Source of the DNA: Minisyncoccia bacterium
Lineage (GTDB): Bacteria > Patescibacteriota > Minisyncoccia > Phycocordibacterales > Zambryskibacteraceae
Direction: 5' to 3'
DNA length: 45,036 nucleotides
Assembly (NCBI GenBank): GCA_038212375.1
Contig: JBBQUO010000003.1
Coordinates: 1 to 45,036 of the forward strand
The position numbers were made by a program, and so were the translations under genes. Every line of letters begins with the position of its first letter. The stretch's first letter is position 1. This document shows, in pieces, positions 16,047 to 18,042 of this stretch. The notes below the pieces were generated by a model, which saw only the letters and a program-made list of their open reading frames with translations, had not been told where the DNA came from and made no database searches.

Positions 16047-16055
16047 AGTGGCAAT

Positions 16056-16083
16056 ACTATACCAAAGAGTGTAATTTTTGCAA
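16056..16083 (-). promoter_or_regulatory. rpmE promoter TTGCAA-N16-TATAGT (extended -10 TGnTATAGT)
   Basis: Motifs read directly; -10 lies 9 nt before the ATG. Confidence 0.55.
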
Positions 16084-16093
16084 GATAGGCAAC

Positions 16094-16119
16094 AAAAAAG
16101 CCCAACCAAAGGTTGAGCT
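16094..16119 (-). terminator. intrinsic terminator of the candidate ncRNA
   Basis: Minus strand AGCTCAACC-ttt-GGTTGGGCT followed by a T run. Confidence 0.75.
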
Positions 16120-16500
16120 GAACTCCAGAGGAGCAAGTAGCCGAAGCTACTGAAAGAACTACTCCCCTCCCGCCGCCGGACTCGGGCCGACGACGAGAGG
16201 GGCACAACCGTGTACCAGCACTTCATCTCTAACAGCGAACAACACCTACTCCGGTGACCTGATGGTCCCGGACCCGCCGCCACTTTCGTGAGAAAACTTT
16301 AACGATAGCGGAGCGAGTAAGTCGCGATACATAGACCGCGTGATCTCCCACCTTTACCAACACAGTTGGCGATCGATGAGAGTACTGCAAGAAAATGACA
16401 ACTCCCTGTTTATACTACTTCAGGACCGGGAAACGTCCGTTTTCATGATCTCCAAGCCACCGAAGTAGCCGGACCAACCTCTCCCAATGGAGTAGATAGG
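16094..16500 (-). ncRNA. candidate large structured non-coding RNA (about 400 nt), family not recognised
   Basis: Own promoter and terminator, pairing 5'/3' ends, two cUUCGg hairpins, a GAAA-capped stem, and a 16-bp stem whose mismatches are all G-U on the minus strand. No credible CDS. Confidence 0.7.
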
Positions 16501-16507
16501 TATCTAT

Positions 16508-16535
16508 ACTATACACCTAATGAAATATTTGTCAA
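16508..16535 (-). promoter_or_regulatory. sigma70-type promoter TTGACA-N16-TATAGT driving the candidate ncRNA
   Basis: tgtcaa at 16530-16535 and actata at 16508-16513 on the plus strand; same architecture as the 596-623 promoter. Confidence 0.65.
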
Positions 16536-16562
16536 GTAAATTCCTTATTTTCTTATCTTACA

Positions 16563-16596
16563 TCCAAAAAACAGCTCGGTTGAGCTGTTTTTTGGA
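16563..16596 (-). terminator. intrinsic terminator after lytic transglycosylase gene
   Basis: TCCAAAAAACAGCTC-ggtt-GAGCTGTTTTTTGGA. Confidence 0.8.
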
Positions 16597-16644: not shown

Positions 16645-18042
16645 CTATATCCCCTTCAAGAAATCGATATTTGTCTGAATAGAATCTGCAGTCTGCATTA
16701 CCTGATCTCCATAAAATACGTTTGCAGGTTTTCGGCCAGGTTTACAATTTGCTCCAGAATAATACTTACATGCGGCATTGCGCTCTGAAGTGTAGCTTGA
16801 GCCACTTGCCCCAAGGTCAGACATGTATATCGCTGTGGCAATGATGGCATGCTGAGGATTCCATGGATCTGCTTGATCTGCACTAATACCCATATCTGCT
16901 CCAATGCGATCCTTGAACAATTCCCATGTAGATGGAATAAACTGTGAAGGTCCCATCCCTCCGCCGTATCCGCGATTTGCAGTATAGGTGTATCCTGGCG
17001 GACACGATACCGCCTGTGATCTCCAATCGAGACCAAGACGAGATGTAATAGCTTGAAATGGCGATGTATCTCTTGGCGCTTTCATTACTTTTTGGAATGC
17101 TGTTCCACTATTTTTTCCTACCCCATCCCCACTACTTATGTCGGTCACGAGGCAAGAGCCCTGATTTTTACCGAGATCTGACTCTTGAGTAAGAATCGCC
17201 AATATAAGTGCTGGCCTTACACCAGTTTTTGTTGAAGCGACATTTGCGTACGCAAGCGCTTGCTCGAAAGAAATACCCTGTGCGTCACGCAGCCTAAAAA
17301 GTGCTGCTCGGATCGCTTCTGCCTTTGCTTGTTTCTGCGCAACCACTTGCTGATATGCATTTGCCTGACTCTGAGTAACAGCAAGGAGCTGCTTCTTCTC
17401 TGTTTGAGTTTGAGTAATAGTTTTTTTTGTAACTTCTACCGCATGCTGAGCATCAGCAGTAGCATTCTTTTTTTGATCGAGCTCTTCTTTGGCTTTTTCT
17501 GTATCACTTTTTGTTTGATCGATGATATTTAAGTGATCGTGCATCGCCCCTTGAATAGATGCAAAAGTATCTAAGTCACTAAAAAAATCTGAAAGATTTT
17601 TCTTGTGGAGTAACACTTGGGGAAGTGAGTACGCATCGATTTCATTTGTTTTTCTAACAAGTTGCCCGAGAGATTGCTTACTCTTATTGATTTTTCCATT
17701 GAGTACATCAATGGCAGCATTTTTGTCACTGATTTGTTTTGAAAGCTGAAGTATAGCAACCTGCTTTTGTTTGATCTCTGCCTGAGCTGCAGAGATTTTG
17801 GCATTGAGATATGTCACATCACCTTTGAGACTTGTAGCTTTTGCCTTGGTATCAGTGAGCACACCTTGCCACTGTACGATCTCTTTTTGTAGTTCATCAT
17901 ACTGGGATTGCAGCTCTGCTTGTTGAGCTGCGGTGTTTGGGGTATCAGCAAATGCAGATGCAGGCGTAAGAAGCCCGCAAATGATGAGAATGGTAAAAAA
18001 TGAGCGCAATAAAAAAGACCTGAGAAGTTGCTGTATAATCAT
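16645..18042 (-). CDS. secreted coiled-coil protein with C-terminal lytic murein transglycosylase domain
   Basis: Signal peptide, long CwlO/PcsB-like coiled coil, ILTQES catalytic Glu, GGMGPSQFIPSTW, DPWNP. Confidence 0.85.
   Translation of the reverse strand: MIIQQLLRSFLLRSFFTILIICGLLTPASAFADTPNTAAQQAELQSQYDELQKEIVQWQGVLTDTKAKATSLKGDVTYLNAKISAAQAEIKQKQVAILQLSKQISDKNAAIDVLNGKINKSKQSLGQLVRKTNEIDAYSLPQVLLHKKNLSDFFSDLDTFASIQGAMHDHLNIIDQTKSDTEKAKEELDQKKNATADAQHAVEVTKKTITQTQTEKKQLLAVTQSQANAYQQVVAQKQAKAEAIRAALFRLRDAQGISFEQALAYANVASTKTGVRPALILAILTQESDLGKNQGSCLVTDISSGDGVGKNSGTAFQKVMKAPRDTSPFQAITSRLGLDWRSQAVSCPPGYTYTANRGYGGGMGPSQFIPSTWELFKDRIGADMGISADQADPWNPQHAIIATAIYMSDLGASGSSYTSERNAACKYYSGANCKPGRKPANVFYGDQVMQTADSIQTNIDFLKGI

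Follow-up and report, generated by a model that had tools for sequence, protein, structure and literature searches.

What is encoded between the gene of an SLT-domain protein and rpmE in the 657-kb genome (37 contigs, 92% complete) of a Minisyncoccia bacterium, hereafter G000? In the window, that is, the whole stretch of 45,036 nt analysed here, the genes around this spacer all lie on the minus strand, in the order L25, a 465-aa SLT-domain protein, the RNA discussed below, rpmE, prfA, rpsB and tsf. An earlier note, made from the letters of the DNA, had proposed that the spacer holds a gene for a large, stand-alone non-coding RNA, read from the minus strand between a dedicated promoter and terminator and possibly representing a new class or a very divergent housekeeping RNA or ribozyme. 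The upstream neighbour (16645-18042, minus strand), whose C-terminal part is of the lytic-transglycosylase type (SLT_2, PF13406, E 5e-06), is conserved to the left of the RNA in genera g1 and g7, and the downstream neighbour, outside the RNA, is rpmE, coding for ribosomal protein L31 (15828-16046, minus strand; PF01197, E 1.9e-29).

The signals proposed for such a gene are present. On the minus strand, a TTGACA box, a 16-nt spacer and a TATAGT box (16508-16535) match the promoter consensus at 11 of 12 positions, and an intrinsic terminator (16094-16119) is made up of a stem (16119-16099) and a T run that reaches 16094. With a start inferred from the -10 box, the predicted transcript spans 16094-16501 of the minus strand (~408 nt). 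Promoter-like sites are by themselves not rare in this region (four found, 2.7 expected from shuffles); terminator-like sites number six, with 0.9 expected. Behind the SLT-like gene, a palindromic, A/T-flanked hairpin of 15 pairs (16563-16596, scored on the plus strand), described earlier as a separate upstream terminator, is terminator-like and reads as a two-way terminator between that gene and the RNA promoter. Downstream, rpmE has a promoter of its own, as had been claimed (TTGCAA-16-TATAGT with a TG, 16056-16083, minus strand, 9 of 12 positions); with 9 nt between its -10 box and the ATG, the rpmE mRNA is probably leaderless, and the same layout is found in relatives that do not carry the RNA. 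The stretch is also GC-richer than its surroundings (0.585 at 16100-16299 versus 0.33-0.42 in the flanks). Judged by its promoter and terminator signals only, the RNA would thus form a transcription unit of its own.

Folding supports the same strand. The minus-strand fold has an energy of -173 kcal/mol (z -6.43), and none of 100 shuffles was as stable, versus -116.9 kcal/mol (z -2.27) for the plus strand. The internal helices named in the earlier note lie at the stated positions of the minus strand: a UUCG-capped hairpin (16470-16455); two local hairpins, CAC-GAAA-GUG (16290-16281) and another at 16272-16250, both predicted and specific to the G000 copy, as a stretch homologous to 16250-16290 is absent from the other copies in a MAFFT alignment; and two hairpins that we call H1 and H2, to which we add a third, H3. 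H1 (16164-16202) is a 16-bp hairpin whose sequence varies among the copies described below while its pairing is kept; its three non-Watson-Crick pairs are all G-U on the minus strand, as had been noticed, and aligning the plus strand to the model turns them into mismatches. H2 (16137-16150, GUAGC-UUCG-GCUAC) has a 5-bp stem that takes the form GURRC/GYYAC in all copies, and H3 (16122-16134, GCUCC-UCU-GGAGU) is the counterpart of a CACUCA...UGAGUG hairpin in four other copies. Between H1 and H2 lies a conserved tract, AGUAGUUCUUUCA (16151-16163, minus strand), with the hexamer UCUUUC at 16157-16152; its predicted partner is a purine-rich tract at 16217-16231 (minus strand), with pairing probabilities of 0.5-0.67. 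The proposed pairing of the two ends of the RNA (16493-16481 with 16133-16122) fared less well: it occurs in one minimum-energy fold, but in a stretch two bases longer it gives way to two local hairpins of equal energy, and comparison lends it no support, the 3' partner forming a local, covarying hairpin instead in homologues.

Does this RNA belong to a known family? Rfam 15 at gathering thresholds recovered only two tRNAs in the whole window, and a lax scan of 16050-16560 gave two chance-level matches, both over the terminator; the Rfam comparison proposed in the earlier note therefore yielded no family match at threshold. The best sub-threshold match was to RF02278, a toxic small RNA of Betaproteobacteria (20.1 bits versus a gathering score of 50, E 0.12, 16092-16143 only). 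Like our RNA, it has a CU-rich stretch ahead of its intrinsic terminator; however, the match covers the terminator and H3 only and does not recur in homologues. Among 11 homologous loci, a lax scan returned 18 sub-threshold matches to 18 different families, none of them recurring.

Particular attention was given to the housekeeping RNAs, whose signatures the earlier note had found missing. Neither RNase P RNA (RF00010/RF00011) nor tmRNA (RF00023) matches at the RNA, and the genome has its own copies of both elsewhere: a full-length type A RNase P RNA at G000:C17:13837-14168 (69.8 bits, E 9.5e-22, against 22.2 bits for the type B model) and, at C18:4393-4800, a tmRNA whose 59.8 bits exceed the cut-off. 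As a side observation, the RNase P RNA score lies below the Rfam gathering score of 100, and standard annotation would miss it. SRP RNA (RF00169/RF01854) has no match in G000 or in five relatives; no Ffh M domain was found in six of six genomes, and no SRP54-type GTPase, neither Ffh nor FtsY, was detected in 41 genomes from 17 families of the order (G000 and 40 relatives), the absence of FtsY meaning here a missing Pfam match only. Loss of the SRP (ffh and ffs) has been reported in Parcubacteria (PMC4508563), and this paper together with the labels of the nearest L31 matches assigns the organism to the Parcubacteria/Paceibacteria-type Patescibacteria. An SRP RNA was accordingly rejected, with neither an RNA match nor a protein partner in the clade; one sub-threshold SRP match, in metagenome contig L134, lies inside the L25 gene. 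A MITE-like mobile element, which would be expected in many copies with terminal repeats, was likewise rejected: the RNA is single-copy in G000 by BLAST and by covariance model R2 (see below) and has no flanking repeats, and a self-match of 26 nt, on C33, was set aside as a chance match that falls within a long reading frame.

Homologues proved difficult to obtain by sequence similarity. The BLASTN and nhmmer searches suggested along with the original claim gave nothing usable: BLAST in 61 genomes returned only matches of 24-66 nt (E 0.001-0.005), two of which later proved to lie inside true homologues, and nhmmer found no match among syntenic RNAs. A search for contigs with L31 led mostly to distant phyla and to no usable locus. 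Homologues were instead recovered by synteny and covariance models, and the failure of BLAST and nhmmer between genera illustrates why such RNAs go unnoticed. When 30 rpmE loci were compared by eye, in about ten the corresponding spacer was long and GC-rich and carried promoter- and terminator-like signals, and in three of the four sister species the rpmE spacer is only 47-143 nt long. RNAs with a clearly related 3' end were found behind the SLT gene in L134 (identical to L144 in the RNA stretch, and counted once), G024 and G028. R1, a covariance model built from the single sequence 16205-16119, next revealed a tandem pair of copies in the sister species G002, upstream of the gmk gene that precedes rpmE.

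A second model built from five sequences (R2) was run over all 86 genomes of the family and matched 12 of them at E <= 0.01, of which 10 were kept after inspection (G000, G002, G024, G028, G072, G073, G033, G066, G012 and G071); G065 is doubtful, and G097 was dropped as a carrier, only a hairpin matching there. With two copies in G002 and the one on contig L134, this makes 12 copies of 211-544 nt. A third model, from 12 sequences (R3), detected no copy in G001, G003, G004, G010 and G011 (best E 0.36), and in the 22 genomes of genus g5 it recovered five strong copies plus weak matches; among the latter, those in G036 and G062 resemble degenerate variants. G068, a genome without a match to the RNA, is counted in both the 86 and the 22. 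An IUPAC pattern of the core retrieved 10 copies in nine of the 86 genomes, with two matches for the reversed control; it missed G012, which has a 5-nt loop. When 401 genomes sampled from the order (118 families) were searched, the same pattern matched G000 and one other genome (control: eight matches), and R3 did not confirm the latter.

The 12 copies share only their 3' ~90 nt. This module comprises, in order, H1, a tract ending in UCUUUC, H2 (GURRC, a 4-5-nt loop, GYYAC), H3 and the terminator, a hairpin and U run being visible by eye after the module in all 12. The claim of a large non-coding RNA thus stands as regards a stand-alone gene, but not as regards a fold of 400 nt conserved as a whole. 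A promoter-like site with a 16-nt spacer and a score of at least 9 of 12 lies upstream of 11 of the 12 copies, and the score is at least 11 of 12 in eight of them. The sense strand is far more stable than its shuffles in 10 copies (z <= -4.6), the exceptions being those of G033 and G066, which are not markedly so (z about -2; 20 shuffles for each copy).

Three hairpins of the module show compensatory changes. In alignment A5, which was fitted to the covariance model and hence favours pairing and inflates the count for H1, 94.5% of 290 cells are paired, versus 56% in shuffles and 34-52% with slid partners, and changes on both sides occur in 23 of 26 pairs. These include all 16 pairs of H1 (93% of cells paired), two of the five pairs of H2, whose other three are invariant, and all five pairs of H3 (92% paired). 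H1 can be described as "any long hairpin", long and free in sequence with its pairing retained. The structure-blind MAFFT alignment A6 gives the same picture for H2, where 60 of 60 cells are paired versus 23-51% when slid, with GC-to-AU exchanges at two positions and three invariant pairs. UCUUUC is invariant in all 12 copies, and everything 5' of it varies. The compensatory changes in H1, H2 and H3, together with the invariant tract, point to selection on structure, and the homologues thus display covarying helices, not the codon-like conservation that would have spoken for a protein. Partition-function folding predicts that the tract pairs with an upstream purine tract in eight of the 12 copies, at a distance of 56-372 nt, and because of this the invariant tract may have a structural role as a paired strand rather than act as a free seed.

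What precedes the module is of a different nature. The 5' body is 150-480 nt long, GC-rich, highly structured and fast-changing; MAFFT aligns the 3' block only, and the k-mers shared among 5' bodies do not exceed shuffle maxima. The separation of the two parts is clearest in G002, where two RNA genes lie in tandem on the minus strand of locus L152 (G002:C4, ~2017-1474 and ~1428-1193; 544 and 236 nt), and each ends in a terminator of its own: their modules are nearly the same and their 5' bodies, of 477 and 165 nt, are unrelated. The occurrence of one module on unrelated bodies in the same genome suggests that the module is what selection acts on. The 12 copies have no reading frame in common, the longest Met-started frames being of 21-56 aa and unrelated, and a protein-coding gene was rejected for this reason. 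In the RNA of G071 (L162), the core also recurs in part (CUCUUUCCGUGACUUC) inside the 5' body, at about position 95-115.

One element of the 5' body is nevertheless common to four copies (G000, G024, G028 and G012). In alignment A7 it appears in G000 at 16423-16438 (minus strand) as a 4-bp stem, GGAC/GUCC, closing the C-rich loop GUUUCCCG; the stem covaries (GAAC/GUUC, GAGC/GCUC), but the minimum-energy fold pairs 16423-16438 otherwise. A CAGGGAG stretch at 16402-16408 (minus strand) is by eye complementary to the loop at 16427-16434, and a pairing of 4-5 pairs between loop and G-rich stretch is possible in all four copies; G028 shows one double change there, from U-A to C-G, and in G012 one C-G pair is replaced by U-G. 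From four sequences, a pseudoknot between 16427-16434 and 16402-16408 is only suggestive. Such a pseudoknot, in a large, GC-rich predicted fold of many helices, is what one might cite for a self-cleaving or otherwise catalytic RNA; most of that fold is not conserved, however, and no Rfam ribozyme family matches even at lax thresholds, so that of the explanations considered here we hold catalysis to be the least probable, with only a slight chance of being right.

The genomic context of the copies bears on whether the RNA serves its neighbour. The order SLT, RNA, rpmE is found in G000 and L134, and the order SLT, RNA, gmk, rpmE in G002 (with the RNA twice), G024 and G028. In G012 and G071 the RNA lies between tatD and rpsF; in G073 and G033 it follows hpf and is succeeded by a convergent formyltransferase-like gene; in G066 it adjoins a divergent recG; and in G072 the contig ends after the RNA, before the next gene. 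Overall, the downstream gene is gmk, rpsF or convergent in eight of the 12 copies. These differing contexts show that the RNA is tied neither to rpmE nor to any single neighbour.

It follows that a cis-acting leader or attenuator, with the terminator as a regulated switch of the downstream gene (here rpmE), is very improbable. Its appeal comes from the position of the RNA, directly upstream of rpmE on the same strand and, in other copies, with gmk or rpsF next on the same strand. Leaders of L31 genes exist in other phyla, where they form Rfam families, and they share with our RNA the location immediately before rpmE. However, no Rfam leader family matches here, the RNA has its own terminator, and rpmE, with almost no leader, has a separate promoter ending 9 nt ahead of the ATG, a layout also found in relatives devoid of the RNA. 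Moreover, the downstream gene changes among rpmE, gmk and rpsF, it is convergent in G073 and G033, and the two tandem units of G002 are each terminated separately. The link of the RNA to rpmE is thus incidental.

The distribution of the module is narrow and patchy: it occurs in two of five species of its own genus, two of three in g7, five of 22 in g5 and the single one in g9. As only 10 of the 86 genomes of the family carry it, the RNA must be either dispensable or quickly remodelled, and the patchiness argues against an essential role. It also limits the generality of our finding. Together with the varying context, it argues against both a housekeeping RNA and an rpmE leader. Of the housekeeping RNAs, the one that deserves most consideration is a very divergent, 6S-like binder of RNA polymerase, given that RF00013 matches neither the RNA nor anything else in G000 and that the promoter of the RNA is strong and its fold stable; like 6S RNA, it would be stand-alone and probably abundant. 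Yet its predicted folds are branched even in the shortest copies (211-236 nt) and not a rod with a central bubble, its length varies from 211 to 544 nt, and the module is missing from 76 of the 86 genomes of the family, including three of the four sister species. With RNase P RNA and tmRNA elsewhere in the genome and SRP RNA deprived of a protein partner in the clade, the earlier suggestion of a divergent housekeeping RNA is not upheld, and we consider it quite improbable, the 6S-like variant included.

A patchy occurrence among close species is also what would be expected of a fast-turnover accessory or selfish transcription unit without cellular function, whose 3' block owes its preservation to recent common descent or gene conversion and not to selection. 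The tandem duplicate in G002 and the unconserved 5' body agree with this, as do the spacers of other genera: between SLT and rpmE, or more generally upstream of rpmE, these hold GC-rich units of ~120-500 nt with promoter- and terminator-like bounds, as judged by eye (L024, L027, L030, L034, L036, L045, L047 and L050), and models R1-R3 and nhmmer do not link these spacer units to the RNA, the best R3 scores being 17.8-22 bits. Four of them (L027, L036, L047 and L050) have by eye a pyrimidine run after a long hairpin and may be diverged relatives. Either the rpmE spacer diverges extremely fast or it has repeatedly hosted RNA genes. A unit without function is nonetheless unlikely, for the module persists in four genera with L31 proteins that are 15-45% different, and its compensatory changes in H1-H3 and invariant tract indicate selection on structure; flanking repeats are absent, the RNA is single-copy in G000, and phage records contain no match to it.

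We therefore favour, as reasonably probable, the reading that the minus strand at 16501-16094 gives an independent non-coding transcript belonging to an uncatalogued, modular family confined to one family of Parcubacteria-type Patescibacteria, and that this RNA most likely acts in trans. The own promoter and terminator, the changing neighbours, the presence of one module on different bodies and the lack of a reading frame all lead to a trans-acting RNA; transcription itself, that action and the kind of partner are what we infer. The functional site would be the 3' module (H1, (Y)UCUUUC, H2, H3 and the terminator), in which the invariant tract and H2 may together be what a partner recognizes, whether that partner is an RNA-binding protein or a set of purine-rich RNA sites, and the 5' body would confer stability or lineage-specific features. 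An invariant pyrimidine tract beside a hairpin with invariant ends does resemble a recognition site for a protein or for purine-rich RNA, and by the rules of base pairing CUUUC could pair with GGAGG or GAAAG. Shine-Dalgarno sequences are, however, seldom used in G000, with GGAGG before three and AGGAG before eight of 384 long frames; the commonest words before these frames are -10-like (TATAA, ATAAT, ATACT), and the genes of G000 appear largely leaderless. This rarity and the predicted pairing of the tract in eight of 12 copies weigh against a free seed. The 3' end of 16S rRNA was not found in the G000 assembly, and its rRNA genes are for this reason probably unassembled.

Among known RNAs, the layout resembles that of large regulatory RNAs with a conserved 3' domain, and the RNA may be seen by analogy as a new family of a known general kind. 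Staphylococcal RNAIII is a large base-pairing regulatory RNA of this sort. Like it, our RNA is several hundred nt long, with many hairpins, its own promoter and terminator, and conservation concentrated in a 3' domain where a pyrimidine-rich element lies beside the terminal hairpins. Unlike RNAIII, it has no embedded reading frame, its conserved element is a UCUUUC tract between hairpins and not C-rich hairpin loops, it belongs to a different phylum, and it has no Rfam match. The large "ornate" bacterial RNAs OLE, ROOL, GOLLD and raiA, conserved over most of their length and represented in Rfam, are likewise large, GC-rich, structured, separately transcribed (as predicted here), lineage-restricted and of a function not evident from context; by contrast, only ~90 nt of our RNA are conserved and no Rfam model matches it. 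The portions of the literature available to us on non-coding RNA in Patescibacteria, CPR, Parcubacteria and Saccharibacteria mention none of this kind.

A genome of about 650 kb thus retains a gene for a 400-nt RNA, headed by a promoter close to consensus, and its relatives keep the 3' module through compensatory changes, which provides a concrete and testable RNA for a group where regulation is a blank. A bolder version of the favoured reading would be a hitherto undescribed modular RNA class in which the ~90-nt 3' "handle" recruits a conserved partner and the diversifying 5' body gives lineage-specific function, as the one species with two bodies on the same handle in tandem (G002) might illustrate. 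We regard this as rather unlikely, though worth stating: if true, it would be a ribonucleoprotein platform in organisms that have no SRP, seldom use Shine-Dalgarno sequences and have few known regulators.

Two further observations were made at the loci compared. In three genomes, a hairpin flanked by CUCUUCUGUA and CUGAGGUUU is conserved before rpsF, downstream of the RNA (L160 ~1640-1720, L162 ~1700-1790 and L155 ~1700-1790). It may be an S6 leader; a lax Rfam scan of these loci returned no S6-leader family. Finally, the rpmE spacers of G005 (L026 ~1250-1300) and G007 (L031 ~1280-1330) share a different conserved, GC-rich stretch of ~40 nt, which adjoins a possible Shine-Dalgarno site and an ATG.
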